Assembly (NCBI GenBank): GCA_965248925.1
Contig: CBDFLE010000004.1
Coordinates: forward strand, 160,001-224,000
Length of the DNA stretch: 64,000 bases
From: Candidatus Multivoradales bacterium
GTDB lineage: Bacteria > Acidobacteriota > Thermoanaerobaculia > Multivoradales > J023
Direction of reading: 5' to 3'
Positions 1-59,521 of the stretch are shown in pieces (the first letter of the stretch is position 1; each line of letters starts with the position of its first letter). Position numbers and translations under genes: made by a program. The notes under the pieces were generated by a model. That model saw nothing but the letters and a program-made list of their open reading frames with translations. It was not told where the DNA came from and ran no database searches.

Positions 1-2561
1 CCGGCCGGCGCACCGCCGGCTGGCAAGTCCAGGATGCCGGCAACCAGCTGTTGCTCGGCGAAAGCCTGAGCTGGACCCCCGGCTCGCGGCTGGCCACCGC
101 CACCCGCACCGATTTGGGTGGCCTCACCCGTCGTTACGGCTACCAGGACGGTCGCTTGATCTCGGCCATCCAGACTGGCGGCCCGGCCTCCAGCGCCCCG
201 GCCGCCACCGGCTGGGCCGACGTGCCCGCGAGCTTCACCTACAGCTACGACCGAGCCCAGAATCTGCTGGGGATGGACTTCGCACAAAGCTGCGCAGCCA
301 CCCAGGTCGCCCTGCCGCTGGATGGCAGCGGCTGGAACCGCCCGGCTTCAGTAGCCGGCGAAGCGCTCCAGTGGACCGCTCGCCAGGAGCTGGCGAGCAA
401 AGGAAACTTCAACTTCACTTACAGCTGGGACCACCGTCCGATCGAACTCAGGCGCAACGGGGTGACGATCGCCTCCTACAAATACGACTCCCAGGGACGC
501 CGAGTCGAGCGCCAAGTCGGCGCCGACACCTACACCACCGTCTGGTCTGGCTGGCAGCCGATCGAAGAGTACAAGAACGGTCTATTGCACAGCCGCCGCA
601 CCTACGGCGTCGGTCTCGACGAACTTATTCGCCTCGAAAGCGACCTCGACGGCGACGGTGTCTTGGAGCAGGAATACCTACCCTTCTACGACACGATCGG
701 CAACCTCGTCCTACTCACCAACGAAGCCGGCAAGCCCATCGAACGCTACGCCTACGGCCCCTACGGCCGGCAGTGGATCGTCGCCGACTCGACCGCGCCG
801 GTAGTCGAGCAGATCCGCATGAAAGGCGACGAGCTGTGGCTCGAACTCTCAGAAGAAGTGCGGCTCGACCGCCTGCAAGCCGCCGCAAGTGCCGGCACGC
901 TGACGCTGGTCAACGCCCTCGGCGAAGAGATCAGCTTGCAGATCGAGCAGCCCGTCGACAACGGCCGCGCCGCCCGGCGGCGCGTGGTGCTGAGCGAGGC
1001 GCCGAGCCAGAATCCCCCACGCTGGCCAGCGGCGGGCGAGACTGCCACCCTGACTATCCCAGCCGGAGCCCTGGTCGACCTCTTCGAAAACAAAGGCGCG
1101 GCCGTGGCCGAAGCTATGACCTGGCCGACCATCGCGGACGAGATCCACAGCGACACCGCCCCTCCCCAGCTGCTCCAGGCTTGCGTCACACCGCAGAGAA
1201 AAGTCGAGCTGGACTTCAGCGAGCCCCTCGACGAAGCGACCCTCGACACCATCCAGCTCAACAGCGTGGCAACCACCTGGACCGTCTCCGCCGATGGCTA
1301 CCGCCTGACCAGCGGCGCCCTCGCGGTCGGCTCCAACACCCTGCTGGTAGACGGCGAACTGAAAGACCTCGCCGGCACCTCGCTAGCCGGCATCGTGAGC
1401 GAGATCTTCATCGTCAACCCAGGTCAGGGCACGATCATCCACAGCGCCCCCTACGCCGGGCAGATCTCCGCCTCGGCCACCGGTAACCCGTTTGGCTTCA
1501 AAGGCTTGCCGCGAGACCCGGAGAGTGGGCTGATCTATGTGCGCAACCGCTACTACGATCCAGAAATGGGTCGGTGGATCACCTCCGATCCACTGGGACT
1601 CGTCGATGGGCCGGGGCAGTATGCCTTTGTCGGCGGGGATCCGGTGAATTTTGGCGACCCGATGGGACTCTTCAATGTCGGGTTGGGGCCGTGTGGTGCA
1701 GTTGTAGATGCCGAGAGGCGAGCAGAGTGCCTGGCGAAGTCTCGGTTGGGGGCTCAGCAGTTTGACCAGGCTGTCACTACCGCGTTAGCCAATCCCTATG
1801 TACAGGGCAGCCTTCAAGTCATCGGTGGTTGTACCGAAGCGGTTGTCGGAGGTGCTGCCGTGCTCTCCGGCGCGGGGGTCTTGCCGGGTGCTGTCGCTCT
1901 TGCTCATGGCACCGATCTGTGCGGGACGGGAATCTCAACGCTCATCGTGGGCGAGACTCAGGAGACCCTCTTCTATCAGGGTGCAACAGCTGGCTTGGTG
2001 GCAAGCGGAGTCGATCCGTACTATGCTGGTTGGGCCGCGGCAGGGCTGGACCTTGGAGTCGGGATCGGCGCTACTCGGGCTGTTGGGCGCTCGTTTGCGC
2101 GGGCTGCGACCACTGGGACGGCAGCTAAGTCCCGAGTGCCGCGAGTGAACCTCGCAAATCCAGTAAATCCGCTATTTGACAGCGAGGACTTAGTCTACGG
2201 TCTGTACAGGGCGACAACACGAAGCAGAAGGAGCGGCCTCGCTACGTTCAATCCGACCTTGGATCTAAGGAATAGAGCGGGCGGTAGACTTTTGACTTCT
2301 TTCGACAAGCCACCGGAATTGGACTGGGTTCGATTCAGCATACTCAAAATGGACGAAGTGTTGGCAAGCGGAAGAAAGATTCGTTTTAACCTGAGCTACC
2401 TTGAGGATGTTGATAACCTAATTCTCGGCCAAGGGAGGTATGGTGCATCAATTACGGCCAGTGAGCTGCGGTACCTGCGAGATAATTGGGGACGGTTTGA
2501 GAACAACGTTGTTTTTTACAAGCACTATCGAGTGGTGAGGTCGCCATGGCAAGTTCAGTAG
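1..2561 (+). CDS. Rhs/YD-repeat polymorphic toxin A, 5'-partial (type II core); C-terminal toxin domain of unknown family
   Basis: The frame is open from the window start and near-identical to 34385-35990. It has YD repeats and the Rhs core RYYDPEMGRWITSDPLG...DPVNFGDPMG. GC drops after ~1670. A Gly/Ala-rich hydrophobic segment precedes a unique tip. Confidence 0.93.
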   Translation, partial: GRRTAGWQVQDAGNQLLLGESLSWTPGSRLATATRTDLGGLTRRYGYQDGRLISAIQTGGPASSAPAATGWADVPASFTYSYDRAQNLLGMDFAQSCAATQVALPLDGSGWNRPASVAGEALQWTARQELASKGNFNFTYSWDHRPIELRRNGVTIASYKYDSQGRRVERQVGADTYTTVWSGWQPIEEYKNGLLHSRRTYGVGLDELIRLESDLDGDGVLEQEYLPFYDTIGNLVLLTNEAGKPIERYAYGPYGRQWIVADSTAPVVEQIRMKGDELWLELSEEVRLDRLQAAASAGTLTLVNALGEEISLQIEQPVDNGRAARRRVVLSEAPSQNPPRWPAAGETATLTIPAGALVDLFENKGAAVAEAMTWPTIADEIHSDTAPPQLLQACVTPQRKVELDFSEPLDEATLDTIQLNSVATTWTVSADGYRLTSGALAVGSNTLLVDGELKDLAGTSLAGIVSEIFIVNPGQGTIIHSAPYAGQISASATGNPFGFKGLPRDPESGLIYVRNRYYDPEMGRWITSDPLGLVDGPGQYAFVGGDPVNFGDPMGLFNVGLGPCGAVVDAERRAECLAKSRLGAQQFDQAVTTALANPYVQGSLQVIGGCTEAVVGGAAVLSGAGVLPGAVALAHGTDLCGTGISTLIVGETQETLFYQGATAGLVASGVDPYYAGWAAAGLDLGVGIGATRAVGRSFARAATTGTAAKSRVPRVNLANPVNPLFDSEDLVYGLYRATTRSRRSGLATFNPTLDLRNRAGGRLLTSFDKPPELDWVRFSILKMDEVLASGRKIRFNLSYLEDVDNLILGQGRYGASITASELRYLRDNWGRFENNVVFYKHYRVVRSPWQVQ

Positions 2562-3028
2562 TTCTTCCGTTATCAGGCACTGGTTCGATTGAGCTTGTAG
2601 AACAGTGGGTTGATGGTAAAGAGAGAAGACCGCAGCGGTCAACTTACTTTGACTCCCATAGATTTAGAGACTGTGTCCTTTGGTCGGTTTCAGTGCGTTG
2701 CATTGATAGTGAAGTGCGACTGGGGAGTGCAAGTAGAGGTTCTTGGGTTTCTGCGTTCCGGTCCTTCGCGTCGAGCATCAATGCTCTGAAATTTAAGTTT
2801 GAGAAGTTTCTGGGGGAGAACGTCTACTTGTTACTATACCTACACGATGAGTGTGGGCCTTTCGCGAATCTCTATGTCGTTGAATACGGTCGGCGGCAGA
2901 TTGAACTTGGGTGGCAGGTTGGCACAGGTAAAATCGAGAGGAGCGGCATCGAGATTGATCGCGCATTGGTTGAAACTTGGCCGAGTCTTCTTCGAGTGTC
3001 CCGTCCGCCGCGTCCACAATCAGATTAG
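2546..3028 (+). CDS. Putative immunity protein for toxin A
   Basis: Small low-GC ORF overlapping the toxin stop. Its last ~10 codons (VSRPPRPQSD*) are supplied by the TGT repeat that starts at 2997. Confidence 0.75.
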   Translation: MASSVVLPLSGTGSIELVEQWVDGKERRPQRSTYFDSHRFRDCVLWSVSVRCIDSEVRLGSASRGSWVSAFRSFASSINALKFKFEKFLGENVYLLLYLHDECGPFANLYVVEYGRRQIELGWQVGTGKIERSGIEIDRALVETWPSLLRVSRPPRPQSD

Positions 3029-3207
3029 TAGCCAAACGGCCACTTTACTGGTCGCCGGCCCTCATTGATGGACCCGCTCCTTGTCGCTCCTCCTCAGCTC
3101 ACGCCGAGTCAGGAAATCCATGGAAACTTGCGGTGTCCCGTCCGCCGCGTCCACAGCCAAAATTTGTCCCGTCCGCCACGTCCACATGTCCCGTCCGCCG
3201 CGTCCAC
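2997..3207 (+). repeat. Cluster 1 of the TGTCCCGTCCGCCGCGTCCAC element-end motif (4 copies at 2997, 3134, 3165, 3187)
   Basis: Direct repeats read from the sequence. The 5' TGTCCC is invariant and the downstream flanks are truncated to different lengths. Confidence 0.95.
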
Positions 3208-3413
3208 GAACAGAATAGTGGCTAAAAGGCCACTTTATTGACCGTTTAGCCACGCCGGTAAGTCGGCACCGTGCCGATCATCCTCAGCGCATTCTGAAAA
3301 TCTTCCCAGTCGACCGCCCTCTTCGCTCACCGGCCGGAAATCGTGCCCCATGGTCGCACGTCACCGTGGACAGCGCGTCGCAGCAGCCCATCAACTCTCC
3401 AGCCTGAGCCGCT

Positions 3414-4328
3414 CTACTTGGGCGCATGGAAGCCAGAGAGCACTCCTTGCCAGGCGGTCATGAATCGTAGGTGCCCTCGTGAGGGCTGGCGGCCGGTCCA
3501 GATCTCTGCCGGTGTGCAGCCGTCGAGGTTCTGGTGCGGGCGCAGTTCGTTATACCAAAACCGGAAGACATCCAACTGTCGCTGGGTCTTGTGGCCCGCT
3601 GGCAGCGGCTCGCGCCGCCGCCGCAGGCGCTCTTTGAAGGTGCCGAAGAAGCGCTCGATACGTCCGTTCTGCCACGGCGAGGCCAGCTGGGTGCGCTGGT
3701 GGCGAATACCCAGTATGGCCAGCGAAAGCCGGAAGATCCAAGATGTAAAGACTGGCTCGTTGTCAGTGCGCAAGCACTTTGGCTTGCCGCATAGCTCGAT
3801 CGTGTCGAGCAGCTGGCGCACCAGTTCGACCGATGCTTTGGTCTTCACTGCTTGAAGGCTCAAGCAGAGCCGAGTGCCGTGGTCGAGCAGGCCGAAGATG
3901 GTTTCTTTCTGGCCGGCGGTGTTATCAGCGTAGGTGAGATCGGCGGCCCAGATCAGCCGCTTGCCGCCGATCCCAGGTTTTCTCCTGCGGATCTTCCGGC
4001 GCCAAGCGAGAATCTCCAGCTGGTGCTCGTTGAAGATCTTTGCAACGTAGCTCTTGCCCACCGTCATTCGGCGATGGCGGTAGTTGCGATTGAAGGCTGC
4101 CGCGATCGCCCTACAGCCATCGTCGGGCTGCAACGCCTTGAGCCGGATCACCGCTTGGCGCACCCACTTGGGCTTGCGCCGGCAGAAGCCGCGACAAGTC
4201 GTCGGGTCGGGTGGACACTTGGCTCGGCGGCGGTGCTTTGCTCTGGGTCGCAGGGCGAAGGAAGTGAGCGCAAGAATCAGAAGCAACACGAACGCCCAGA
4301 GAAGGGCGCCGGCAAGGTCGGAAGTCAT
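3414..4328 (-). CDS. rve/DDE integrase-core protein (IS481/IS3-like fold) with N-terminal hydrophobic helix, copy 1
   Basis: DDE triad motifs WAADLT, LRTDNEPVF and NGRIERFFGTFK; C-terminal WYNELRPHQNL; HTH-like region upstream. Four intact paralogs in the window. Confidence 0.92.
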   Translation of the reverse strand: MTSDLAGALLWAFVLLLILALTSFALRPRAKHRRRAKCPPDPTTCRGFCRRKPKWVRQAVIRLKALQPDDGCRAIAAAFNRNYRHRRMTVGKSYVAKIFNEHQLEILAWRRKIRRRKPGIGGKRLIWAADLTYADNTAGQKETIFGLLDHGTRLCLSLQAVKTKASVELVRQLLDTIELCGKPKCLRTDNEPVFTSWIFRLSLAILGIRHQRTQLASPWQNGRIERFFGTFKERLRRRREPLPAGHKTQRQLDVFRFWYNELRPHQNLDGCTPAEIWTGRQPSRGHLRFMTAWQGVLSGFHAPK

Positions 4329-9935: not shown

Positions 9936-12900
9936 ATGCCAAAACAGCCCTCTCTGCGCTTTCTCCTCATCCTCCAGGTCTCTCTCGGAGTTCTCTTACT
10001 GTCGGCGAGTGCCGCTCAGGCGGCGCCGGTCTTTGTCTCGGTAACCCCCGTCGACGGCACTCTGTCGAGCGCCGCGTCGGTGACTCTGACGATCGAGGTG
10101 CAGGCCGCTGCCAGCTTGCAGGTGGACGGCCAAGCGGTCACTACGGTCGATCCCTCGGGGACGGTGTGGACCGCCGGCCCCTACTCGCTGAGCGAAGGGG
10201 AGCGGGTGTTCGTGTTGATCGCCGAGGACGCTTCTGGGGTGCAGGCTCAGCAGCTGCACCGGGTGGTGCGGGACTCGCTGCCGCCGGTGCTGAGCTTGAG
10301 CCAGCCGGCGGCGGGGGCGATCGTTGCCAGCTCGCCGCTCATCGTGGTCGGCACGGCGGTGGATGCGCATCTGGCGGCGGTGCGGGTGGGGGGCCAGGTG
10401 GCGGCTCTCAGTGGTGCGAGTTTTTCGCACTCTCTGGTCTTGGTGGAGGGCGAGCAGACGTTCACCGTGGAGGCGAGCGACAGCCTGGGGCAGAGCGGGC
10501 AGCAGAGTGTGACGGTGACTCTCGATAGCCAGCCGCCGACGGTGGCGCTGTTGGAAGGAGCTCAGCCGTTGGCGGCGGATGCGCTGTTCAATCGCTCGGT
10601 GGTGCTGAGCTTCAGCGTCACGGATGCGACGGCTACGACGGTCGAAGCGCTGCTCGACGGCGCTTCATTCACCTCCGGCACGACGGTGAGCGCGGCGGGT
10701 TCGCATGTGTTCTCAGTGACCGCCACCGACGCGGCTGGCCAGCCGACTAGCGTCAGCCGGAGCTTTGAGATCGACCTGACGGCGCCGTCTTTTCTCAGCT
10801 TCACGCCGAGCGATGGCACGCTCTTGGCAGACTCGCAGGTGACCCTCAGCGGGGTGGTGGAGGGTGCGGCCGCGCTGAGTGTCGAGGGGCAGGCGGCGAG
10901 CCTGGTGGGGCAGTCGTGGACGGCCGGGGCGTTGCAGCTGATCGAGGGGGAGCGGGAGATTTCTATCCTCGCTACTGATCTGGCGGGCAATAGCGCCTCG
11001 TTCACCTTGCATTTGGAGCGCGACGCGACGGCGCCGCAGCTGATCGGCCTGGTGCCCAGCCTGGACACGGTTCTGGCGACCTCGCCGGTGGCCGTAAGCG
11101 GCACCGCGAGTGACGCCCACTTGCTGGAGGTGCGGGTGGGGGGCGAGCTGGCGAGCCTGACGGGCTCGCAGTTCAGCCACCCGGCGGTAGTGCTGGTGGA
11201 GGGTGAGAATCTCCTGCCGATCGTGGCCACGGATCAGGTGGGCCATCAGGCGACGGCCGAGCTGCGGCTGGTGCTCGACACCCAAGCACCGACGCTGTCG
11301 CTGCTGGTGGCGGGAGTGCCGCTGCAGGGTGGGGCGGTGTTCGCCGGCCCGGTGACGCCTGAGATCTCGGCCAGCGACGCCACCGAGGTGGTGACGTCGG
11401 CGACTCTCGACGGCGCCACCTACCTGCCGGGGACGGTGATTGATGGCGATGGCTTGCATCAGCTGTCGGTGAGCGCCAGCGACGCGGCGGGCCATCAGGC
11501 GACGGTGCTGGTGAGCTTCAGCCTCGACCTGGCGGCGCCGGTGTTCGCGGATCTGGCGCCGGTGGATGGCAGTGTGGACAGCGGGGCTCAGGTGACGCTG
11601 ACCGGCCGCGCGCCGGGGGCGGTGTCGGTGTCGGTGGACGGGCAGGCGGCGACGCTGGCGGGGGATGGCTTCAGCGCCGGTCCCTTCAATTTGAGCGAGG
11701 GAGAGCGGGTGTTCTTGCTCGCCGCCACCGATAGCGGCGGCAACGTCACCCAGCTGACCCACCACCTGACTCGCGATTCGACGGCGCCGCAGCTCACTCT
11801 CGGCCAGCCGGCGGCCGGAGCCCTGCTGGGGAGTACCTCGGTCGATGTCAGCGGTACGGCGAGTGATCCGCGTCTCGATCAGGTGACGGTCAATGGGGTG
11901 CTGGCCGAGCTCAGTGGCGGCGCTTTCCTGGCCCGTCAGGTGCCGCTTATTGAAGGTGACAATGTACTCACGGTGGTGGCGGCGGACACGGTGGGCAACG
12001 AGGTCCAAACGACCCGCTCGGTGACCGTTGATACGACGCCGCCGACGGTCGTCATCACCGACCCGGCCAGCGGCACGATCACCCCCGAGGCGGGGCTGAC
12101 CCTGTCGGGCAGCGCCGCGGATCCTCATCTCGATCGGGTCGAGGTGGCGGGGGTGGGGGCGAGCTTGGCGGGTGGGCAATGGTCGTTGGCGGTGGATCTG
12201 CAAGAGGGCAGTAACACTTTCACCGTCGAAGCCTTCGACCCGCTCGGCCACAGCACCAGCGCTAGCGTCACGGTGACCCGCGACAGCTCGGCGCCTGAGA
12301 TCCACATCGAGAGCCCGGCCGAGGGGCTTTACAGCCCAGCAGCGAATCTCACGGTCAGCGGCACGGTGGTCGCGGAGCCCGATTTGACGGTGACGGTGGG
12401 CGGCGTGGCGGCGACGGTGGCGGGCAGTAGCTGGAGCGCCGCCGCGGTGCCGCTAGTAGAGGGTGAGAACCGGCTGATCGCAAGGGTGACCGACGCCCTG
12501 GGCAACCAAGGCACTCACACGCGGGTGGTGTGGCGCGACAACCAAGCGCCGGAGTTTCTATCGTCGATCCCCGCCGCGGGGGCTCTCGAGCTGCCGGCCG
12601 GCAGCAGCTTCCGGCTGCGCTTCAGCGAGCCGTTGGCGGCGCCCAGCGGGGGCGCCTACAGCCTCAGCACCTTGGCCGGGCAAGCCCTGGCGAGCAGCGC
12701 CGAGATCGATGGCGACGACTTGGTGATCACCCCGCAGGCAGCACTGCCGTCGGCCACCGAGCTGCGCCTGGTGCTAGGGGCGGGGCTGGTCGATCGGGCG
12801 GGCAATGCTCTAGCGGCGGCTCATACTCTGGCTTTCACCGTGGTCGATGGCGGCTCCCCGGCGGCGCCGCAGCTCGACGCCTACGCTAGCTATCTCTGTG

Positions 12901-15900
12901 CGCCGGCTACCACCCTTGCCGGCAGTGCCGAGCCTGGTGCTTGGATCGAGGTAGATGGCGGGGCCTCAGTAGGAGCGGGGCAGGTGGCAGACGATGGCCG
13001 TTTCGCCATCAGCGTCGTGCTGCTGCCCGAGGGGCCGAATCACCTGACGGTGATCGCCGTCGACGCCGCGGGCAACCCCTCGCCCGCGACGAGCGCCGAT
13101 ATCGTCCACGATTGCACCGCGCCGGAAGTGCTGGGTGCCAGCCGGGAGGCGGCGGGATTCCGCATCGCCCTCAGCGAGACGGTCGACCCGCTGAGCTTGA
13201 GCGGCTCGGTGCGGGTGTACGACGGCGGGATGGAAATCGCCGGCACAGAGAGTGCGACTGCCAGCGAGCTGATCTGGACCGCCAGCGGAGCGTTGCCAGC
13301 AGTCGCTCTGCTGGTCGAAGTCGAGGGAGCTTTGGCGGACCTGGCCGGCAACCCGTTGGCTTTCCCCTACCGGCAACTCTTCGATATAGCCCTGGGCGGT
13401 AGCTTCTTCTCTGGCACCGCTATCGACGACGCCAGCGGCCGGCCGCTGGCCGGGGTGCGGGCGGTGGTGACGGCTAGCGACGGGGTGGCCCTGGCCGAGC
13501 CCTGGCCGGAGCAGACCAGCGGCGAGGACGGTCGCCTGGTGATCGCTCTGCCCGCCGGCACTCACGACGTGACCTTTGCCCGGCCGGGCTACACGCCGGT
13601 GTTTCGGGTGGTGACGACGGTCGACGGCCAAGGCACGGACGTTTTCGACCCTCGCCTGACGCCGGCCGCGGCGGCGGTGTCGATAGATGCATCGGGCGGC
13701 TTGGTGGAGGGCTCTTCCGAGGTCGGCACGGCGCCGCGTCTCACTCTTCCGCTCGCCGGCCTGGCGTCGGCTGCGGCGGTGCGCCTGACGGCGGTGGGCG
13801 GCCAGGGGCTGGCCGCCTTGCTGCCCTACGGCTGGGCACCGCGGGGTGCCGTCTGGGTGGATCTCTCGGCCGTGAATCTGGATAGTTCCGCGACCCTCGA
13901 TCTGCCGGTGACCTCGGCCGACGGGACGGTCCTGGAAGCGGTGACTCTCGATCTCGCCACCCTGCAATGGCGTTCGCTGGGGGTGGTGACGGTGAGCGGC
14001 GGCGAGGTCACGATGACCGTCGACGGCGAAGGAGCCTGGGCGGCGGTGGAAGCCGACTCGGGAGCTTTGGCGCCGCCCCCGGCGGTCGCTGGCCAGATGC
14101 TGGGCTCCTCGGCCGCGCCGCCGTCCGGCGGGGTGACTAGCGCCAGCCTGAGCTTCGATCCCGAGGTGGTCTTGCCGACGCAGCGCAGCTGGGTACAGGT
14201 GCTCTACGGGCTGGCGGCGGAGGTGCCGAGCGGGGTGCCGCTGACTTTGTCGATCGAGGAGCGGCTGGAGCTACTCGATGGCAGCGTGCGGCGGATCAGT
14301 CCCTACAGCGCCGATCTGGTGCTCTACCGCGATTCGCTGGGCGATCCGACCTCGAGGTTCCGCCTGCGGCCTTCGGCCGCGGCGCGCAGCCTGCCGGTGC
14401 GGCTAGGTGCCGAGCAAGTCAGCGTGCGGTCCTACGGTGATGAGACGGTGCGCGGCAACGTGCTCGGCCCCGACGGCGGGGTGGTGTCGAGTGCCGAGGG
14501 CGATCAGGTGGTGTTGCCGACGGGAGCCCTCGAGGAGCCCACGGCGGTGACCCTGAGTCGCCGGACAGTGGCAGATCTGCCGCTGGCTCCACCCGCTGGT
14601 GGCACGGTCGATGGCGTCTTGGAGCTGGACCTTGCCGGCCGCCGGCTGTTGCTGCCGGCTGAGTTGTCGTGGTCGCTGACCCCGGCACCGGCTGCTGGCA
14701 CGCCGGGTTTGTTGCTAGGGGTGGTGGAAGTGGAAGGCGAGCCGCGCTATCGGGCGATTGCCGAGCTGGAAGCCACCGCCACGGGCTGGAGGACCCAGGC
14801 GATTGACGCTGCCGATCTGGCCTGGCCGGGGGTGCTGGAAGGTGGTTTGTACGTTTTCTTGCGCCTCGATGCGGCACCGCGCTTTGTGCGGGGCATGGTG
14901 CTTGACCCAGGAGGTGCTCCGGTCGTGGGCGCGGTGGTCGAGTCGACGACGGTGCCTTGGCTCCAGATCTCAGCCGCCGAGGGTGGCTACGTGCTGCCGA
15001 TTCTGCTGGATGCCGCCACTCTCAGCGCGCGGCGCGCGGTCACCGGCAACGCGGTGGCGGTGGCGCTGCCGGCCGGGGTTGCGGCGGAGCGGGTCGATCT
15101 CGATCTGCCGCTACAGATCGTGGCGCCGTGGGTCGAGCAGATCACTCCGTCAGCGGGCACCAGCGGAGTGTTGCTCGGGGTCAATCCAGTGGTGCGTTTC
15201 AGCGAGCCGGTGGATCGGGCCTCGCTCGATGGCGCTATCGAGCTGCGCCAGGGGGGCGTGGCGGTGGCGGTGGCACTCGATCACCAGGGCGCCCTGGTCA
15301 CCCTGCTACCGCAGGCGACGCTGGTGCCTGGCAGTGAGTACGAGGTCTGGGTGGGGGCGGCGGTGCGTGACTTGCAGGGCTATGGGCTGAGCGGCTCGGT
15401 GAGCGTGCTGTTTAGCACCGAGGTGGTGGCGACGCCAGCCGGGGTCGATCGCGGGCGGATCTTCCTGGTCGAGCCCGATGCCCAGGGGCTGGCGCGAGTG
15501 GAGGGCGTGGCGGGGGCGGCGCCGGCCGGCACGCTGGTCTTCGTCGAAAACCTGACGTCGTTCTCGACCACCGAGTCTGTACAGAGCGCGGGTGACGGTA
15601 GCTTCCTGCTGACGATCGGCGCCAGCCTCGAGGATCAGCTGCTGCTGCATGTGCTGATCGATGGGGGTAACGAGGTAGTGATCCTGCTGACTCCGTTCCT
15701 GGGCGCCGACCTGCGCACCGGCCTGGCGGGGACGGGGGCGGGGGAGTTTACGACCGCCGATGGAATCACTGTACGCTACTCGGCTGGCACCTTCGCCGGG
15801 CCGTCCAGGGTAAAGGTGACGCCGATCGCCATGGGCACGCTCGCGGCGGCAGAAGACTTCAGCGAGCTGGTGACCTTCCGGCTGGAGATCGCCGGCGCGC

Positions 15901-18900
15901 AGCCACTGAAGCCGCTGGAAGTGACGATGGCGGCGCCGGCTGGCACCGCACCAGCTGGCACCGCAGCGGGCAGCCTCTGGCTGCTGCGCCGGCAGCTCGA
16001 GATTGCCGATTTACCGTGGATGGTCCACGCCGAGCTGGCTCTCGATGGCGGTGAGCTGAGCACGATCCACACCGTGGGCGAAGCCCAATCCGCCAACTCC
16101 GGCGAGGTGGGTGGCACCAAGTCAGGCACGTTTGACGTGCCGGCCCCTCTGCGGGTACTGAGCCCGGCAGAAGCCGCCGCGCGGCTGCCGCGCTCGGGCT
16201 TCTTGAGCGCTCTGCCGCCTGCTGACCCAGCGGCTCTGGTCGAGGTCGAGCCGCCCCTGGCCGGCTTGGGAGCGGCCAAGGCGACCGTCGCCCCTACCTT
16301 GGCGGACTATCTGGTCGGCGTCTCCCGCCCCGGCGTCTATCAGGCAGCGCGGGCCGAGGTCGAGCTGGGTTGGATCGCCTTCCCCTTCCGTGGCGCCCAA
16401 GACCTGGTGGTGCGCAGCGCCGAGTTGCCCGAGGTGGTGCTGGCGCTCGATGCGGTCAACCGCTCCTTCCTGCCGCTAGGCGCCGGTGCCTTGCCGGTTG
16501 AACTCAGCCCGACGCCATTGAACGCCGATCCCGCCGCGCCGGGGACCAAGGCGCCGCCAGCGGGCGAGCCCAAGGCCGACTCGGTGGAGATCCAGGTGCT
16601 CGATTTCGCCGGTGTCGAGCTTTACCGGCTGGTGGTCGACGCCCCGACCCAGCAGCTGGTGCTGCTGACCCCCAGCCAGCTACCCAACGCCGGGCCGCCC
16701 ATGCCGCTGGGCGGTGGGCCGCTGCGCTTCCATGCTTTTAGCGCCGCTCCAGGCACTAGCGAGATCGCCGCCGGCATCAGCGCCGAGCTGGAGGGTAACT
16801 CGCTCACCGTGCGCGGCGAGGCCGGCAGTGCCGGAGCTGGAGTGGCGGTGCGTTTGATCGATCTAGAAAGCTCGAACGTGCTCAGCGCTACGGCTTCTCC
16901 AGGCGGTAGCTTCAGCGTCGTCGCCAGTCCGTCGCAGCTCGGCGATCAGCTGGTGCTGGCGATCTCGGCCAAGCTCACTCCCGGCCAGCCGCTGCGCCTC
17001 GACTTCTCAGAAGCCTTGCAAGAAGAGGCGCCAGGTATCCGGGTCGAGCACGACGGGATGGCGCTGCCGATCACCAAAGAGCCTCTGGGCAGCTGGGCAC
17101 AGCTGCGGATCCATGGCGGCTGGCAGGCTGGCAAGACCTACAACTTGCGCCTGGACTCGACCATGGCCGACGCCGCCGGCTTACCTTGGGACGCAAACAT
17201 GACTCTGCCTTTCGAAGTCGCCGAATCGAGCGCCGGCACTAGCTTCGCGCTCGACGAGGCGCACGACATCGCGCGCCTCGGCTCGTTGCTCTTCGTGGCC
17301 GCCGGAGCCGATGGCCTGGCGGTGCTCGACGCCAGCGACCCGCGCCAGCTGAAGAACTGGCTGGCGGCTGAGACCTACGTCGACCTGGTCGCGGAGCCCG
17401 GTCTACCGGTGCGCGGGGTGGCGACCGACAGCCATGGCCGGGTGGTGGCAGTAGGGGGTGGCGTCGCCCGCCGGGGGGTGCTGCTGATCCTCGATCCGCA
17501 AGAGCTGCCCCAGGGTGCCGCGACGGTGCCCGCGGCGGCGATTCTCGGCCGCACCCTCCTCACCGAGCCCCAGCTGGCTGGCTCGGGTGCCCCGCCGCTG
17601 CTCATCGGTCGGCCGCTGGAGGTCGAAATCTTCAACCGCGACCAGAGCACGACTTGGACGCTGGGGGAGGCGGTGCCGCCGGGCCTCACCCTGGCCCCGC
17701 CCAGTCCACCGAGCGGCACGGCGGCCGTCTCGCTCACGGTCAGCGGCATGGCGACGGCGGAGCGTCCGGTGACCTTGCGCAATCTCACCACCGGCGAGCG
17801 CGACAGCGCTCGCGTCGGCAGTGCTGGTGGCGGCGGTGCTGGCAGTTTCTCCCTGAGTCTCAGCGTGCAGCGCGGCGACCGCCTGGAGCTACTGCGCAAC
17901 GAGCTGTCCCTGGCCTACGTGGCAGGTTACGACGCCGGGGTGGTGACGGTGGATCTGAACGCCGTCGAAGCGGCCGATGAGGAAGTCGACGATCCTTGGG
18001 ATGCTTTCGATCTGCTGCGCTACAACACTCATTATTTTGTACCGACCGAGGTGCTGTGCTCGACGTTTGAGAACGATCAGCGCTTCGACGTGATCGACGC
18101 GCGGGTGCTGCCGGCGGCGTCGGAGGGCGAGCCTTGGAGCGTGCTGGCTCTGGTTGAGAACTATGGCTTGCTGTCGCTCGGTGCCTCGGTCGCCACTCCG
18201 CTGGAGAAGCTGGCCTACCGCGACGCTCTGTGCGGCGAGGTCGACGGCAACCGCAAGCTGGGCGGTCTCGATGTGCTGCCCGGCTACCGCTTCGACCGTA
18301 ACGGCGACGGTGTGCTGGACGACACTGAGCCCGAGCGTGACTACGCGCTGCTCACCAACACCGTCGGTGGCGGCGGTCGTGGCTGGCTGCTGATTGTCGA
18401 TGTCACCGAGCGCGATGAGCTGCGCCGGGTGGGCCGCATCGAGCTGCCCGGCCCGGCGACGCGGGTGACCGCCGATGCAATCGGCCGCCGCGCCCTGGTC
18501 TCAGGCCTCGGTGGCGGGGTCTACATCGTCGACCTCGACCGGTGGCCCGAGCTGGGTGGCGGCGGCGGAACCCCTCAGATCTGGTCGAGCGATCGGGTGG
18601 TCGAGCGCCTGAGCTTTGGCGAGGACGTGCGCGCCCCCACCCTGGTGGCTCCAGAACTGGGCCTGGCCTTCGCCGGTGGCGTTGCCCGCGGCGTGACCCC
18701 CCTCAGCACCGGCCTGCCACGCCTGTCGCTGGTGACTAGCGGCAAAAAGGGACTGCGCCGGGTCGCCCGGTTGGCGCCATTTGGCGCGCCTAGCGCGCCG
18801 GAGAGCGCCGAGGAAGGTGCCGAAGAAATACCCGGCCTGATCCGCGTGCAGGCGCAGCTTCCCGGTGGCCTGGCCGATGCCGAGGGCAAGATCCGCGTCG

Positions 18901-21900
18901 ACCTCGCGGGCATCGGCCCCGCCGGGCTGCCGCTGCGCGGCCTTGGTGAGGGGCTGATGGACGAGCCCGTGGCCGAGCTGAAAGACGATAAGGCGCTGGT
19001 GCTGCAACGGCAGTCAGACAACCCCCTCTCAGAGGGCTACAACGTCTTCCTCTCCGACCCGGTGGTGCTGCTGGCCGATGTACGCGCTTCGGCGCATTTC
19101 GAGCGCTCGGAGGCCGAGAAGAAGGTCTGCCGCCGCTGCGACCTGGTGGACGAGGGGGTCTACACCGCGGCCGATCTACCTCCCAACGAGCTGCATGTCG
19201 AGCTGCTGTCGGGCCATCAAGTGCGGGCTAGCTACAGCGCAGCCTTCGCCACCAGCCTTGCCGGCCTCTACGATGCCGACCTGCTAGCGGGCTACGCCGT
19301 CGTCGCCGACAGCGTGCCCTGGGATCTCAGCCCCTCGCCGCACCAGGAGCCGGTACTCAATGCCGCCACTAGCGCGATGGCGGCGCCGGGCACCCTCTTG
19401 CACTCAGGAGAGATGACCCGCCAGGCGATCGACTTAAGCCTCCAAGGCCGGGGATTGGACCTCGCCTTGGTGCGCACCTACCGCAGCCAGACCATCAGCA
19501 ACGGCCCCCTCGGCCCGGGCTGGGATCATGGCTACCGCCTGCGCCTGCGGCTCTTGCCCAATGGCGATATCGACTTCTTCGACGGCACTGGCCGCCGCGA
19601 GACCTTCACCTTGGAAGACGACGGCAAGCTTATGCCGCCCGTCGGCCGCTTCGTCCAGCTCAAGAAGTACGCCGAGGGCTACACCCTGATCGGCAGCGGC
19701 TACCAGCGCTGGCGTTTCGACCGCTGGGGTCGTTTAGTGTCGATGATCGACTCGGTGCGCACCAGCGAAGAGACCGGCAACGAGATCACCTTCCACTACG
19801 ACGCCCACTCGCGCCTGGCGCGAATCCACGACGATCTCGACCGCAACACCTTCCTGCACTACGACGACGAAGGCCGCCTGGAGAAGATCGTCGACTTCAG
19901 TGATCGCGACTTCCTCTACCACTACGACGCCCAGGGAAGATTGACCAGTTTCGAGACTCCAGTCGTCGACCTCGGCAGCGGCAGCAGCCAGCGTCTATCG
20001 ACCACCTACGCCTACCACGCCGCCGGCACCGGCCTGGCTGGCCAGCTCAGCCAACGCGATGATCTGAAAAGCGAGACCGACGCCAAGAGCCAGACCTGGC
20101 TCACCCTGCGGTATCAGGATTCCGACGGCAACGGCCGCCCCGATGCGCTCAAAGAACAAGATTGGGGAGCGGAGACAGTGCATTTGGCCTTCGATTTCGA
20201 CGGCCAGCAGACCACCCTGACCGATCGCCGAGGCAAAGTCTGGACCTACCATCTCAACGCTGCTGGGCAGGCCACCAGCCTGGTCGATCCGAAGTCAGCC
20301 AACGGGTCGTGGCAATACGACGGCGAGGGTCTGCTGACCCGCGCCACCCGCCCCTTGGGTGGGGCTACCCAGATCGAGTATCCGGCGGACACCTCCGGCG
20401 ACCGCCGCGGCAGAGGCGATGCCCAGCGGATGGTTAAGATCGCCGATGGCCGCGGCCCCAACGGCTCGCCCAGCGAGCTGGTGACCACCTGGGAATACCA
20501 CTCACCGACCCACCAGCCCAGCCGAAAAACCGAGCCCGGTGGCGCGGTGACGGTGTGGGAACGGACGGATAATGGCCTGCCCGAGCAGATCGTGCGGGCC
20601 GCTGGCGCGGCGGAGCAGAGCATCACTGGGTTGAGCTACAACGCCCACGGCCAGCTGCTGGAAGCCACCAATCCCAACGGCCACGTCACCCGCCACAGCT
20701 ATTTCACCTCTGGCTCAGAAGAAGGCTACTTGAAGCAAACTGAAGTCGACCCTGGCGGTCTCAGCCTGGTCACCATTTACGAGCGCAACGATCGCGGCCA
20801 GCTGGAGGCGATCACCGATCCGCGAGGCGTGCGCCATGAGACCGAGCTGAACAGGCTGGATTGGCCGCTGGCCCAGGTAGCCGCCGCCAGCACCAGCGGT
20901 TTTCTGGCACCCCTCGGCTACCGCACGACCTGGCGCTATGACGCTAACGGCGACATCAGCGAAGTGTCTAGTCCTTTCGGCGATGGCTCAACTACGACGA
21001 TCGAGGTCCGCACCTACGGCGTGCTCGGCGAGCTGCTGTCGGCCGAGAGAGAGGTGGCTCCAGGGGGTCGACGTATTGTAGAGACCTCGACCTATGACCC
21101 AAACCTGAACCTCTTGACTCACGTCGACGGTGCCGGCCAGCGGGTCGAGCGCGAGTACGACGAGCGAGGACAGTTGTCTCTGGTGCGCCGCGGCTTGGGT
21201 ACCGGCGCATTGGCGACACCGATTGTCGAGCACCAGAGCTACGACCTGGACGGCCATTTGAGCAGTCAGCGCGATGGCCGCGGCATGACCTGGGAGGCCG
21301 AGCGCGATGGCCATGGTCGGGTGCTGCGCAGCCGCTCGCCTCTCGGCCACTACCGAGAGCAACGCTACAATCCGGCCGGCGATCTGGCTGCCCTGCTGGC
21401 CTACGATGCCGGGGGGCAGCTGCTAGTCGAGAGTGCTTTTGCCTACGATCTGCTGCACCGCCGCACCGAGACCACCGCCTGGCGCTGGACACCGGACCCG
21501 CAGCAGCCCGACCCCTCTCGTACCGCTGAGAAGACTCACCATCGGTGGGACGCCGCCAGCAACCTGCTCGAAGTCGAAGATCCGCTGGGTCGCCTGACCA
21601 GGACTTCTTACGATGCTGCCGAGCGCCCCGAGCGAGTGGAGCTGCCCGAGGGCAACGTGCGCCGCACGACCTACGATTCTGGTGGCTTGCCGATTACCGA
21701 GCATGCCGACGAGGTCGATCCGGCGGGCGGCTCGCACACCATCACCTATCAATCGACTTTCGATGCCCTCGGCCGCCGCCTCAGCCGCCAAGACGGAATC
21801 TTCGCCAACCGCACCCTCTGGACGCTGGATGCTCGCGGCCAGGTGACCCTCGAAATCGACCCGACGGGTCGATTCACCCGGCGCAGCTACGATGGGCTCA

Positions 21901-24900
21901 ACCGGATGACCCGCGAGGTGCGGCCGGAAGGAATCTCGGTCGACTACAGTTGGGACGACGCTTCGCGCCTCACCACCTACACCGACGCCCGCGGCCAGGC
22001 CACCCGCTGGGAGTACGACGGCGTGGGTCGGCGCACCAAAGTCGTCTATCCCGATCAGCAGCAGGAGCGTTGGGTCTATGACCCCACCAACAACGTCACC
22101 GAGCGCCACGATCCTCGCGGCCTGGTAGTGCATCAAAGCTGGGACGAGGCTGGCCGGTTGCAATCTCGTACTGTCACCCAGTCGCCGGGAGGCGCTGTGG
22201 AAGGGCCGATGGTCGAGGCTTTCTCCTTCGACGGCCTCGACCGCCTAATCAGAGCCCAGTCGGGAAGCGTAGTTACCGAGCGAGTCTACAACTCCCTCTC
22301 CCACCTGGCCTCAGAGACGAATGCCGGACGCACCACCAGCTGGCAGCGCAACGCCCTTGGCGAGCCCACTCGCACTAGCTACCCCTCGGGACGCCAGGTC
22401 GAGCGCACTTTCGACAATCTCGGCCGAGTTAGCACGGTCGGCGAGTCCGGCGCGCCAGCTTCGATTGCCAGCTATGGTTATCGCGGCCCGGCGATTGCCC
22501 GCAAAGACCTCGGCAATGGCCTCCAGGGCAACATGAGCTTCGATGGCCTGCGCCGCATGGTGGACAACAACTTCAGCTTGGCGGGGGAGTCCGCCACCTT
22601 CCAAGAATCTCTGGCCTGGAGCCCCCGCAGCCTCAAGACCGGCCAATCGCGGGGCGATCTGGGCGGTGCTGGCCGGGTCTTTGCCTACGATGGCGCTCAA
22701 CGCTTGATCGAATCCGCCCGCGTGCCCCCGGCGCTGGCTCAGCGCCCCGGTAACACGCCCCCCGACGTGGCCCTGTTGGCCAGCTTGCCCGAGCGCACTA
22801 GCTATCAGCACGACAACGCCATGAACCTGATTCGCAGCACCACCACCCAGCGTGGCATCGAGCAGATCACCGACTTACCGCCCGACAATCGCAATCGTCC
22901 CAGCGCCTTCGGCGGCGTTGCCCTCGAATGGGATGCCGCCGGCAACATGAAGCGCAAAGGCGATATGCAGATGTACTATGATTTACACAACCGCCTGACG
23001 CGGGTTACTCGGAGTGGTGTCGAAGTCGCCAAATATCACTACGATGCTTTCAATCGTCGGGTGAAGATCCAGACTCCGGTTTACTCTGAGGAGAGCGTCT
23101 GGGACGGCTGGCAGTCCATGGAAACCTACCGCAACGGTGTTTTGGCCTCGCGGCGGGTCTACGGCAATGGAATCGACGAGATTCTCCAGCACGAGGTCGA
23201 CCTCAACGGAGATGGTACTGTGGAGCAGACCTACTATCCGATCACCGACAGCACTGGCAATGTGGCGATGCTGACCTCTTCTAACGGCAAACCCATCGAG
23301 CGTTATTTTTACAGCCCCTATGGTGAGCGGCGGGTGTTGGTGGATCTGACTGCCCCGAGCAATCATCAACTTCTCATCGATACTTCCGGGATGCTGCGAA
23401 TCGAGCTGAGCGAAGAGGTTTCTATCGAGGAGCTTGAATCGGGCCTGGCAGATGGCCGGATCAAGCTAGAGAGAGTGTCCGACGGGTCGCAGATTCCTCT
23501 TACCCTGGACCTGCCCGTTCAAGGCGGACCGCTGGCTCGACGCCGGTTGGTGCTGGCCCCAGCCACGCCGCCCGCGGCAGGGGAGCAAGTGCGGTTCCAA
23601 GTGGCGCCCTCGGCGCTGCTCGATACTTTCCACAACTCGGCCGTCTCGGGTATCGACCACACCTGGGCCTGGTCGGCGACGCCCAGCGTGCTCCAGGACA
23701 CGGCGCCGCCGAGAGTCAGCGAGGTAGTGGTCCGCTCGGGCGTTGTCGAGATCGTGTTTACGGAGGAAGTTGATCCAGCTGCTGCGGCGGCGATAGTACA
23801 GCTCGACGGCCAGCCCGCCAGCTGGACCTTGGCTGATGATCGCTACACCGTCATCGCTACTACCGCGCTGAGTGCTGGTTCCCACACCCTCGACATCGGC
23901 ACCGCGGCTCTCGACCTCGCCGGCACCGGCCTGGCCCAGCCCTTCAGCTTGGATCTTGAGATCGGTGCCGCTGCCAATCCACAGTCGGCTAACCTGACTG
24001 CAAAGAGTCCGGCTGGTGCCAAGGCGGAATCCGGTGACAGCTTCGTGGCCTACCAAGATGTGGACTTGCTCTTCAGCGACACCAGCGCGGTCGGCAACGT
24101 CTACGGCTTCCACGGCCGGCCACTCGATCGAGAGACCGGGCTGCTGTACTTCAGGAACAGGTATCTCGATCCGGAGATGGGACGGTTTATCAGCATGGAT
24201 CCGATGGGGTATGTGGATGGGCCTAGTGGGTATCAGTTTGCTGGGAGTTCGCCGGGGGATGGAAGGGATCCGTTGGGGTTGTGTGTGGGGAGGCTAAGAG
24301 AGACTGGTTTCTGCAAGGGCGTCAATGATTTGCTAACCGGGTATGGGCCGGTGGTCAATGACAATGCCGTTCTCAAGGAGTATGAAACGGTGAGACGGGA
24401 GGCGATTCGGGTTGTAGATGGTCTAGTTTTCTCGCCTAGGGTCGGACATCAGATCTATCCGAACCTGCACCATGGAAGCATGTCTTCTGTTGTAGGACTT
24501 GTTGTTCATCAGACGACTGCTGCTACCGCGACTTCTACTTACAATACGTATTCCAGTCCGGAGAGGACAGTTGGTGCTCACTTCTTGATCGAGAGGAATG
24601 GGAAAATCGTTCAAACGGCGTTGGTGAACCAACAGGCTTTCCACGTTGGCACTATGAAGTCGAAGTGTCTGGATGAATTCGAGGCTTGTGCCGTTGCGGT
24701 GGGTCCCTTCGTTGCGTTGTCAGCCGCTCTGGATATTGCCGAGTTCCTGCAGAGTCTTGCAATGGAGAATCATAGTCCGCGAGCACTCTCTGCCTACGAG
24801 AAGAAGAAGTCGTTCCCATTTCGGTATCCTTCGAATGCCGACTCAATCGGCATTGAGGCTGTTGGTGCAACTAGAGACCCTGCCACGGGAGCCTATCCAT

Positions 24901-25541: not shown

Positions 25542-25579
25542 TGTCCCGTCCGCCGCGTTGTCCCGTCCGCCGCGTCCGC
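25542..25579 (+). repeat. Cluster 2 of the TGT element-end motif (17-nt truncated copy at 25542, full copy at 25559)
   Basis: Starts 4 nt after the immunity stop codon. Confidence 0.95.
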
Positions 25580-25785
25580 GATCAAAATCGTAGCCAAACG
25601 GCCACTTTATTGGTCGCCTTCCTTCGTTGATGGACCCGCTCCTTGTCGCTCCTCTTCAGCTCACGCCGAGAATTTCCCAGACCGACGGCGATCTTCGCTA
25701 GCTGCCGAGAATCCGAGGCGCCTGAGCGAGCCTCACCGTGGACAGCGCGTCGCAGCAGCCCATCAACTCGCCAGCCTGAGCCGCT

Positions 25786-26700
25786 CTACTTGGGCGCATA
25801 GAAGCCAGAGAGCACTCCTTGCCAGGCGGTCATGAATCGTAGGTGCCCCCGTGAGGGCTTGCGGCCGGTCCAGACCTCGGCCGGTGTGCAGCCGTCGAGG
25901 TTCTGATGCGGGCGCAGTTCGTTATACCAAAACCGGAAGACATCCAACTGTCGCTGGGTCTTGTGGCCCGCTGGCAGCGGCTCGCGCCGCCGCCGCAGGC
26001 GCTCTTTGAAGGTGCCGAAGAAGCGCTCGATACGTCCGTTCTGCCACGGCGAGGCCAGCTGGGTGCGCTGGTGGCGAATACCCAGTATGGCCAGCGAAAG
26101 CCGGAAGATCCAAGATGTAAAGACTGGCTCGTTGTCAGTGCGCAAGCACTTTGGCTTGCCGCATAGCTCGATCGTGTCGAGCAGCTGGCGCACCAGTTCG
26201 ACCGATGCTTTGGTCTTCACTGCTTGAAGGCTCAAGCAGAGCCGAGTGCCGTGGTCGAGCAGGCCGAAGATGGTTTCTTTCTGGCCGGCGGTGTTATCAG
26301 CGTAGGTGAGATCGGCGGCCCAGATCAGCCGCTTGCCGCCGATCCCAGGTTTTCTCCTGCGGATCTTCCGGCGCCAAGCGAGAATCTCCAGCTGGTGCTC
26401 GTTGAAGATCTTTGCAACGTAGCTCTTGCCCACCGTCATTCGGCGATGGCGGTAGTTGCGATTGAAGGCTGCCGCGATCGCCCTACAGCCATCGTCGGGC
26501 TGCAACGCCTTGAGCCGGATCACCGCTTGGCGCACCCACTTGGGCTTGCGCCGGCAGAAGCCGCGATAAGTCGTTGGGTCGGGTGGACACTTGGCTCGGC
26601 GGCGGTGCTTCGCCCTGGGTTGCAGGGCGAGCGAAGTGAGCGCAAGAATCAGAAGCAACACGAACGCCCAGAGCAGGACGCCGGCAAGGTCGGAAGTCAT
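25786..26700 (-). CDS. rve/DDE integrase with N-terminal hydrophobic helix, copy 2
   Basis: Near-identical to copy 1; DDE motifs intact. Confidence 0.92.
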   Translation of the reverse strand: MTSDLAGVLLWAFVLLLILALTSLALQPRAKHRRRAKCPPDPTTYRGFCRRKPKWVRQAVIRLKALQPDDGCRAIAAAFNRNYRHRRMTVGKSYVAKIFNEHQLEILAWRRKIRRRKPGIGGKRLIWAADLTYADNTAGQKETIFGLLDHGTRLCLSLQAVKTKASVELVRQLLDTIELCGKPKCLRTDNEPVFTSWIFRLSLAILGIRHQRTQLASPWQNGRIERFFGTFKERLRRRREPLPAGHKTQRQLDVFRFWYNELRPHQNLDGCTPAEVWTGRKPSRGHLRFMTAWQGVLSGFYAPK

Positions 26701-36942: not shown

Positions 36943-37256
36943 TGGTAGATTTAGCGGATGAATTGAGGACTGTGCTGTATACGATTTTCTATGTTGAAGA
37001 CTTGTCAGCATTTCAGGGTTTGACCTCCTCTCAGAAGGAAGCATTTCTTCGTGACCATACCCTTGAAGAGTTGGGAAAAATGCGAGATGGTCTCCGGTGG
37101 GGAGTGGCCAATTCTGACTACAATTTCTCATCTCTCTGGGAGGGTCTTAGCTATACTGACCAGGAGATTCTGAGGTATGTAGAAATATTACTGAGGGATT
37201 TTGAAGAATTTGTGCCGAAGCTGTCCCGTCCGCCGCGTCCACAGCCAAAATTGTAG
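36942..37256 (+). CDS. Putative cytoplasmic immunity protein for toxin C
   Basis: GTG overlaps the toxin TAG; acidic, helical 104 aa; low GC. The C-terminal LSRPPRPQPKL* is supplied by the TGT repeat. Confidence 0.8.
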   Translation: MVDLADELRTVLYTIFYVEDLSAFQGLTSSQKEAFLRDHTLEELGKMRDGLRWGVANSDYNFSSLWEGLSYTDQEILRYVEILLRDFEEFVPKLSRPPRPQPKL

Positions 37257-37318
37257 CCAAACGACCACTTTATTGGTCGCCGTCCCTCATTAGATGGTGT
37301 CCCGTCCGCCGCGTCCAC
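37222..37318 (+). repeat. Cluster 3 of the TGT element-end motif (copies at 37222 and 37298)
   Basis: Two 21-nt copies. The 55 nt between them is a truncated version of the flank that follows the second copy. Confidence 0.95.
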
Positions 37319-37524
37319 AGTCAAAATTGTAGCCAAACGACCACTTTACTGGTCGCTGGTCCTTGTCAATGGACCCGCTCCTTGTCGCTCCTCCTCAGCT
37401 CACGCCGAGAATCTGCCAAACCGACGGCGATCTTCGCTTGCTGCCGAGAATCCGAGGCGCCTGAGCGAGCCTCACCGTGGACAGCGCGTCGCAGCAGCCC
37501 ATCAACTCTCCAGCCTGAGCCGCT

Positions 37525-59433: not shown

Positions 59434-59442
59434 TTTCCTGTC

Positions 59443-59521
59443 TGTCCCGTCCGCGTGTCCCGTCCGCGGCGTCCACGATCAAAATCGTAGCCAAACGGCC
59501 TGTCCCGTCCGCGGCGTCCGC
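59443..59521 (+). repeat. Cluster 4 of the TGT element-end motif (13-nt copy at 59443, full copies at 59456 and 59501; GCGG variant)
   Basis: Starts 9 nt after the immunity stop. Confidence 0.95.

Follow-up and report, generated by a model that had tools for sequence, protein, structure and literature searches.

Stacked, truncated copies of an integrase unit's end in Rhs toxin arrays: a probable record of repeated end joining

A tandem array of giant Rhs genes, each followed by an integrase unit

The stretch of DNA analysed here (the window) is 64,000 nucleotides of a Candidatus Multivoradales bacterium genome (GenBank assembly GCA_965248925.1, contig CBDFLE010000004.1, positions 160,001 to 224,000; C4:160,001-224,000 where C4, C5 and C6 denote contigs of this genome). 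It is not a set of scattered IS copies but part of a tandem array of large, 20-30-kb near-repeated modules; for example, 7648-23319 is 95% identical to 41762-57444. Each module holds a 304-aa rve-type DDE integrase gene, two small ORFs without family hits, a pterin-4a-like ORF, an HTH-TPR regulator and a giant RHS-repeat protein gene. The large ORFs match RHS_repeat with E values of 8e-51, 1e-26, 8e-14 and 7e-32, and one C-terminal tip is an Amidase_2 domain. GC content drops from about 0.70 in the Rhs core to about 0.52 in the tip and the small ORFs that follow it, and the tips are mostly not alike between modules, as in Rhs polymorphic toxin loci; the toxic and immunity functions of the tips and small ORFs are presumed from sequence and position. 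Two unrelated insertions interrupt the modules. The features are collected in Table 1.

Table 1. Features of the window (positions are those of the 64,000-nt stretch).
Position	Strand	Feature
3..2561	+	3' part of a giant Rhs-array gene; no Pfam hit in this stretch, but 1-1610 is 95% identical to the Rhs gene at 34385-35994; its low-GC tip ends before cluster 1
2546..3028	+	160-aa ORF in the position expected of an immunity gene (no family hit); its reading frame runs 32 nt into the outermost end fragment
2997..3133	+	Cluster 1, outermost end fragment, 137 nt; first 112 nt homologous to A-type ends, last 25 nt do not align with other units
3134..3164	+	Cluster 1, 31-nt end fragment
3165..3186	+	Cluster 1, 22-nt end fragment
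3187..3413	+	Complete end region (B type), unit 1, from the TGT terminus to the integrase stop codon; contains a hairpin followed by T-rich sequence
3414..4328	-	304-aa rve/rve_3 DDE integrase, unit 1
5117-7647		Multi-copy Transposase_29 IS (unrelated insertion)
9936..25073	+	5045-aa RHS-repeat protein with Ig-like domains and a C-terminal Amidase_2 tip; ends before cluster 2
25542..25558	+	Cluster 2, 17-nt end fragment
25559..25785	+	Complete end region (A type), unit 2
25786..26700	-	Integrase, unit 2 (304 aa, intact)
29464..36942	+	2492-aa RHS-repeat protein; ends before cluster 3
37222..37297	+	Cluster 3, 76-nt end fragment
37298..37524	+	Complete end region, unit 3
37525..38439	-	Integrase, unit 3 (304 aa, intact)
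about 38573-41473		IS21-type element (unrelated insertion)
44049..58976	+	4975-aa RHS-repeat protein; ends before cluster 4
59439..59442	+	Possible 4-nt micro-fragment TGTC just before the outermost copy
59443..59455	+	Cluster 4, 13-nt end fragment
59456..59500	+	Cluster 4, 45-nt A-type fragment
59501..59727	+	Complete end region (B type), unit 4
59728..60642	-	Integrase, unit 4 (304 aa, intact)

The original prediction, made from the sequence alone, was that 11 copies or truncations of TGTCCCGTCCGC... lie in four clusters, all starting exactly at TGT and cut off after 137, 31 and 22 nt (cluster 1), 17 nt (cluster 2), 76 nt (cluster 3) and 13 and 45 nt (cluster 4), with only the last copy of each cluster running on to the integrase. 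We confirmed this observation in full. A scan with the degenerate 21-mer, allowing up to 2 mismatches, gave nine matches, all on the + strand, against 0.00 expected in 100 dinucleotide-preserving shuffles, and the two shorter truncations at 25542 and 59443 are visible in the sequence and in scans with a 12-mer and a 9-mer. The two predicted flank types, A and B, are also real; the segment at nt 22-180 of the unit has two alleles that are about 63% identical. The prediction did not recognise, however, that the clusters mark the boundaries between the variable tip and presumed immunity region of one giant Rhs module and the integrase of the next.

Since the region is highly repetitive and short-read contigs break in it at many places, an assembly artefact had to be considered. 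Short-read contigs from four runs of one sample (probably the source sample, and so not independent) bridge the cluster 1 junctions at 2997, 3134, 3165 and 3187 without differences, and comparable stacks are present in independent assemblies (below), including complete genomes (L004) and a same-family relative (L086); we therefore regard an artefact as very unlikely. These contigs showed no alternative joints at the stacks, although contigs cannot show circles, rare joints or activity, and the single joint listed in them (5160 to 5281) lies in the unrelated IS.

We next asked whether the motif is a dispersed REP-like repeat or has ragged 5' ends, either of which had been named beforehand as evidence against the prediction; neither was found. 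The end occurs about 30 times in the genome, at C4:162,997-269,596, C5:10,730-61,121 and C5:2,329,574, always on the + strand and always in Rhs arrays, each cluster ending in an integrase unit; the remaining 12-mer hits diverge immediately after the 12-mer and look like chance. Fifteen of 15 internal junctions and 13 of 14 outermost copies start at TGT, and one starts CGT. The integrase unit has 12 long copies plus two diverged ones, all downstream of, and convergent with, Rhs genes. About 12 Rhs modules run from C4:147 kb to C5:62 kb, and a second Rhs family lies at C5:2.33 Mb and C6:5.21 Mb. Of 12 units that have a TGT terminus, 7 carry stacks; those outside the window are at C4:269,476 (4 copies), C5:36,610 (a 496-nt fragment) and C5:49,301 (5 copies), which gives 15 junctions in all between a fragment and the next TGT.

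Origin of the end fragments and properties of the integrase unit

Fragments long enough to judge match other units better than their neighbour. The 45-nt fragment at window 59456 has 7 mismatches to the complete copy of its cluster and 0 to the two units at C4:269,596 and C5:61,121; the 45-nt fragment at C5:49,301 and the 41-nt fragment at C5:49,346 each have 8 to their cluster's complete copy and 1 to window unit 4; the 31-nt fragment at window 3134 has 5 and, to window unit 3 (37298), 1; and the 57-nt fragment at C4:269,539 has 2, and 0 elsewhere. Thus, as the original prediction had argued, the longer fragments are not local slippage copies. The 13-, 14- and 17-nt fragments, on the other hand, match every unit; they are uninformative and could be slippage. 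Junctions are strongly biased toward a resident terminus, since 14 of 15 lie within the first 137 nt of a unit that measures 1142 nt from TGT to the integrase start (binomial P about 2e-12 against uniform targeting), and 2 of 14 outermost copies are preceded by a 4- or 5-nt prefix of the motif (P about 0.001), the 5-nt one at C5:10,725. No consensus is visible by eye in the 12 nt before the TGT junctions. The units themselves are mosaics, in that units 1 and 2 are 63% identical at nt 22-180 but 100% identical at nt 400-1000. The copies are 84-95% identical, so there is no sign of recent bursts.

Direct repeats of a roughly 21-nt terminal motif in one orientation, spaced 13-137 nt apart next to an rve-superfamily enzyme, might instead be a functional multi-site end, like the arrays of TnsB, MuA or TniA binding sites in Tn7, Mu and Tn402. 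We consider this improbable, since the number of copies per end varies from 1 to 5 among 12 units of one genome with spacing that is never the same, 5 of these 12 units (and 55 of 63 relative copies with the motif, by the strict criterion described below) have a single site, the repeats extend into non-motif flank of different alleles, and no second end was found.

Nine integrase copies encode an intact 304-aa protein, and pairwise dN/dS values of 0.14-0.37 with dS up to 0.28 indicate that the paralogues have diverged in place under purifying selection. The protein scores 58.4 bits against Pfam rve_3 (cut-off 26.5) and 29.4 against rve, below its cut-off of 32.6, with DDE_Tnp_IS240 also near its threshold; the family profile hits retroviral integrase cores in the PDB (best E 6e-12). 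D130, D189 and E225 are invariant in an alignment of 25 family members, and their assignment as the catalytic triad rests on spacing and general knowledge of such enzymes. Like IS481 and IS3 insertion sequences it is an rve-type DDE enzyme of about 300 aa with a 5'-TGT terminus, and the first 10 nt of the end are identical to one end of ISPa57, whose reported ends start TGTCCCGTCCTGAA / TGTCTAGTCCTGAA (PMC7378034). However, it scores 108.4 against a cut-off of 224 for IS481 (NCBIfam NF033577) and 94.2 against 160 for IS3 (NF033516), its copy number is low and it is not dispersed. IS3 elements have two overlapping ORFs (orfA/orfB) joined by a frameshift, whereas here there is a single 304-aa ORF; the 155-aa ORF upstream of it has no HTH family hit, is absent from the related loci, and has paralogues elsewhere in the genome without an integrase.

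The original prediction assumed an ordinary two-ended IS, but we could detect no second, inverted end. There is no copy of the 12-mer on the opposite strand within the arrays, no inverted pair involves the end in window 3150-5250, none was found within 6 kb in 80 related loci, and in 50 related loci the best match of the terminal 18 nt within 400 nt upstream of the integrase averages 10.28 of 18, against 10.40 in a control region. The inner boundary of the unit could not be defined in this genome, because every full unit continues on its inner side into the same sequence and similarity fades gradually after the integrase start. Rfam gave 0 matches in the window at gathering thresholds, and the 234-nt end region folds only modestly better than shuffled sequence (z = -2.5).

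Relatives of the integrase in other phyla

A profile scan of one genome per species found at least 308 loci, of which the best 80 (numbered with the prefix L) were kept; they are 35-52% identical and come from Acidobacteriota, Nitrospirota, Gamma-, Beta- and Zetaproteobacteria, Fibrobacteria and others. In the plasmid collection searched only one relative reaches 40% identity, labelled just 'integrase core domain-containing protein', and everything else is at most about 33% identical and labelled IS3 family or unannotated. In 63 of the 80 integrase copies the motif ...GGACGGGACA, or a near variant, lies 120-480 nt after the stop codon on the integrase strand, and the terminal 18 nt are strikingly conserved, typically TGTCCCGTCCGCnTGTCC. 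In five other genomes the integrase has 4, 1, 1, 1 and 3 copies, and multiple copies are always clustered in one locus.

Stacks of terminal fragments recur in these relatives, with lengths of 52, 175 and then four times 8 nt in L004, 8 nt in a second L004 copy, L028 and L052, 111 nt in L005, 92 nt in L058, 71 and 17 nt in L060, and 101 and 100 nt in L075. In L052 the end of one copy is joined into the integrase ORF of the next, leaving a fragment of about 905 nt, and a genome of the same family as the window's (L086) carries a four-copy stack with fragments of 75, 27 and 32 nt. Our strict criterion counted 8 stacked copies of 63, and missed several that are visible by inspection. L004, L063, L075 and L003 are also direct arrays, in which the unit is about 1.24 kb long with a discrete inner boundary that is neither an inverted repeat nor conserved between genomes. 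No target-site duplication was seen by eye at three L004 copies, where arrays and stacks would hide one.

Some of these stacks are as well explained by integrase-independent replication slippage, unequal crossing-over or illegitimate recombination: the 8-nt unit ACGGGACA, repeated up to five times in L004 and also seen in L028 and L052, is identical to its neighbours, as are the shortest fragments in the window's genome, and the three equal repeats of about 101 nt in L075 could be unequal crossing-over. As a general explanation this nevertheless appears unlikely, since fragments of 22 nt or more mostly differ from their neighbour and match other units, every repeat ends exactly at the element terminus and none carries flank DNA, fragment lengths within a stack are unequal, and the same pattern arose independently in many lineages.

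To examine the association with toxins we scanned the longest convergent frame (its C-terminal 700 aa or less) from 51 loci, leaving out loci whose longest such frame was under about 370 aa. Of the 51, 12 carry RHS_repeat, 4 DUF637, 3 Fil_haemagg_2 and 1 Tox-REase-7, where the last three may overlap. Full-length scans showed that L004 is a CdiA-like protein ending in Tox-REase-7, followed by a 275-aa ORF and then the end stack, and that L044 and L050 are Fil_haemagg_2 proteins. On an Undibacterium plasmid the integrase converges on a 12,949-aa 'tandem-95 repeat protein'. Among 31 loci with 5 kb on both sides, 17 have a frame of at least 800 aa on the convergent strand downstream, while the other three side-and-strand combinations give 4, 8 and 3.

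A model for end joining and its relation to known elements

The repeats are the outer terminus (5'-TGT..., that is ...ACA-3' on the integrase strand, or in longer form ...GCGGCGGACGGGACA-3') of a roughly 1.2-kb integrase unit that sits at the distal edge of every Rhs module in the array. The original prediction, that an end repeatedly attacks DNA just inside another unit's end by adjacent deletion or targeted insertion and leaves a chronological stack of scars, is partly supported by these findings. Four features point to a transposase-type strand transfer from a TGT (...ACA-3') terminus into the end region of another unit: an exact terminus joined to arbitrary positions, the foreign origin of the fragments, the strong bias to the first nucleotides of a resident end, and independent recurrence across phyla. 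Joining of an end just inside another unit's end is the best reading, and we hold it to be somewhat more likely than not. Since only one kind of end was found and all units are direct repeats, we propose that integrase bound to two like ends of directly repeated units brings them together, and that the cleaved ...ACA-3'OH of one is joined at, or a few to about 140 nt inside, the other. An exact hit would be invisible, whereas a near miss would leave the outer N nt of the attacked end as a scar between the old toxin/immunity cassette and the incoming complete unit. The intervening DNA would either be lost (a module deletion) or leave as a circle of cassette plus integrase unit that could re-enter by homologous recombination in an Rhs core or in a unit, and repetition would stack the scars with the oldest next to the cassette. 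The analysis itself establishes the anatomy, the precise termini, the foreign origin of the informative fragments, the bias toward the end, the intact and selected integrase genes and the recurrence in other phyla; catalysis by the integrase, synapsis of two like ends, the order of events, the fate of the intervening DNA (deletion, insertion or circle formation), and the toxicity and immunity functions of the cassettes are inferred. There is at present no biochemical or population evidence for activity, ordinary two-ended transposition cannot be assumed, synapsis of two direct ends has no direct precedent that we know of, and the discrete inner boundary in L004, L063, L075 and L003 is not explained by this model.

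A run-on form of one-ended transposition would give products that look the same. In this view a segment starts at one TGT end, runs through the integrase and the next toxin cassette, stops N nt into the following unit's end, and is inserted exactly beside a resident TGT terminus. The single recognisable end and the direct orientation of the unit-plus-cassette arrays are compatible with this idea, and one-ended transposition occurs in Tn3-family and ISEcp1-type elements. It is doubtful, however, since a replicative run-on mechanism is not known for rve/IS3/IS481-type enzymes, it needs two special steps (termination inside an end and insertion exactly at an end) where our model needs one, and the 905-nt and 496-nt fragments fit poorly with termination at an end. 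A literature search on one-ended transposition returned nothing useful.

Published behaviour of other elements makes the proposed steps plausible; the integrase would work most like end-targeting IS30/IS911 and like IS26/IS2-type translocatable units. IS30 and IS911 direct a transposon end to a resident copy's end through a single-strand transfer, which gives a branched molecule, conversion tracts and deletions that start at an end (PMC9333248), and the end bias and mosaic units seen here fit that behaviour. Those elements, however, join next to and outside the targeted inverted repeat and make IRL-IRR junctions, whereas here the joint lies 4-137 nt inside a like end in direct orientation, no left inverted repeat was found, and truncated ends accumulate. 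Directly oriented IS2-like copies flanking the bcpAIOB (CDI) genes of Burkholderia thailandensis form a transposase-dependent 'megacircle' that reinserts beside a resident copy, and IS26 translocatable units are comparable (PMC6350997). The arrays here likewise alternate unit and cassette in direct orientation, but those IS have two inverted repeats, belong to recognised families and occur elsewhere in the genome, while this integrase has one recognisable end and is confined to Rhs/CdiA toxin loci, and no circle has been observed here. Tandem toxin-tip/immunity cassettes separated by transposase and integrase genes downstream of CdiA or Rhs genes have been noted in general terms (PMC4927057), without naming a family, an end sequence or a mechanism. 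Our literature searches for the end motif, for Rhs/CDI with integrase or transposase and for DDE cassette arrays found no description of this family or of stacked ends, although they did not extend to ISfinder or supplementary files, so that a named IS entry cannot be excluded; a term search of Poole et al. 2011 and of the first 300,000 characters of Zhang et al. 2012 found no mention of integrases at these loci. Here a single family with a conserved terminus and junction scars is defined.

A more far-reaching possibility, which we regard as tentative, is that this family is not a selfish insertion sequence but a locus-bound, single-ended DDE recombinase that serves polymorphic-toxin loci (Rhs, CdiA/TpsA and other giant secreted proteins) across phyla. 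Acting on its one conserved TGT terminus, it would excise, delete and re-join whole toxin-tip/immunity modules and so build and edit 'orphan' cassette arrays, as a DDE counterpart of what the integron integrase does for gene cassettes, and the stacked truncated ends would be its junction scars.

How Rhs and CDI loci swap toxin tips and build arrays of displaced 'orphan' toxin/immunity cassettes is a long-standing open question. If the stacks are only accidents of an ordinary, self-targeting IS, they are a neat but minor curiosity of transposon biology. The locus does name a specific candidate enzyme family and its putative DNA substrate, ...GGACGGGACA-3', and it preserves presumed natural products, the scar stacks, whose sequence would record which unit was joined to which, making the question testable at the bench. 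A DDE integrase with only one recognisable end, kept intact under purifying selection in at least nine paralogous copies and confined to toxin loci, would also widen the known range of transposase behaviour.

Coordinates of additional features in the Rhs modules, elsewhere in the genome and at related loci (C4 to C6, contigs of the genome containing the window; L003 to L081, loci encoding relatives of the integrase)
Location	Feature
window 5117-7647	IS encoding a 797-aa Transposase_29 + HTH protein
window about 38573-41473	IS21-type element (524-aa Mu-transposase-like/rve protein plus an IstB ATPase)
C4:264,087-265,414	1314-bp multi-copy IS3-family element
C4:253,142	solitary 18-nt end fragment
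window 2546-3028 and 37100-37242	small ORFs just upstream of clusters 1 and 3
window 4238-4328 (-)	integrase residues 1-30
window 3208-3366, 25580-25738, 59522-59680	noncoding segment between the terminal 21 nt and the integrase stop
window 4379-4846, 7608-7913, 8197-9534	155-aa ORF, pterin-4a-like ORF and HTH-TPR regulator
C5:1,076,682-1,077,687 and C6:4,661,696-4,664,304	paralogues of this trio
L004 5918, L063 5761, L075 5865, L003 5852	inner (integrase-start) boundary of the unit
L081 (Undibacterium plasmid NZ_AP018442.1, 127,727-168,629)	relative of the integrase

Other insertions and isolated end fragments

The Transposase_29 IS is unrelated to the integrase units and is inserted in module 1; its ends recur about 30 times in the genome at roughly 99% identity, in contrast to the 84-95% identity among the integrase units. 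The IS21-type element replaces most of the 155-aa ORF next to integrase unit 3. Outside the window, the IS3-family element sits exactly between a 13-nt end fragment and a complete TGT end with no visible target duplication, which suggests either that the junction between a fragment and a full end is itself a favoured target, or that the TGT end was joined at the edge of that IS. The solitary 18-nt fragment lies downstream of an Rhs gene but has no integrase unit behind it, and other genes follow instead. The small ORFs upstream of clusters 1 and 3 read through into the end fragment, so the end was joined inside, not after, a coding frame.

Sequence features of the integrase unit and its neighbours

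The integrase starts with a hydrophobic stretch (LLWAFVLLLILALTSFAL) followed by an Arg-rich segment, resembling a membrane anchor, and all nine intact copies keep it. The noncoding segment exists in two alleles about 63% identical, combined with near-identical integrase genes, and both alleles keep a hairpin followed by T-rich sequence (GTGGC..GCCAC). The 155-aa ORF, the pterin-4a-like ORF and the HTH-TPR regulator recur as a trio elsewhere in the genome (36-45% identity) without an integrase; they therefore belong to the Rhs module or its regulation, not to the integrase unit.

Relatives in other genomes

In L004, L063, L075 and L003 the inner boundary of the unit is sharp and abuts 5'-truncated toxin genes at different positions. 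It is neither an inverted repeat of the outer end nor conserved between genomes, and none of the models considered here explains it. In L081 the relative of the integrase converges on a 12,949-aa "tandem-95 repeat protein", so the association may extend beyond Rhs and CdiA to other giant secreted proteins.
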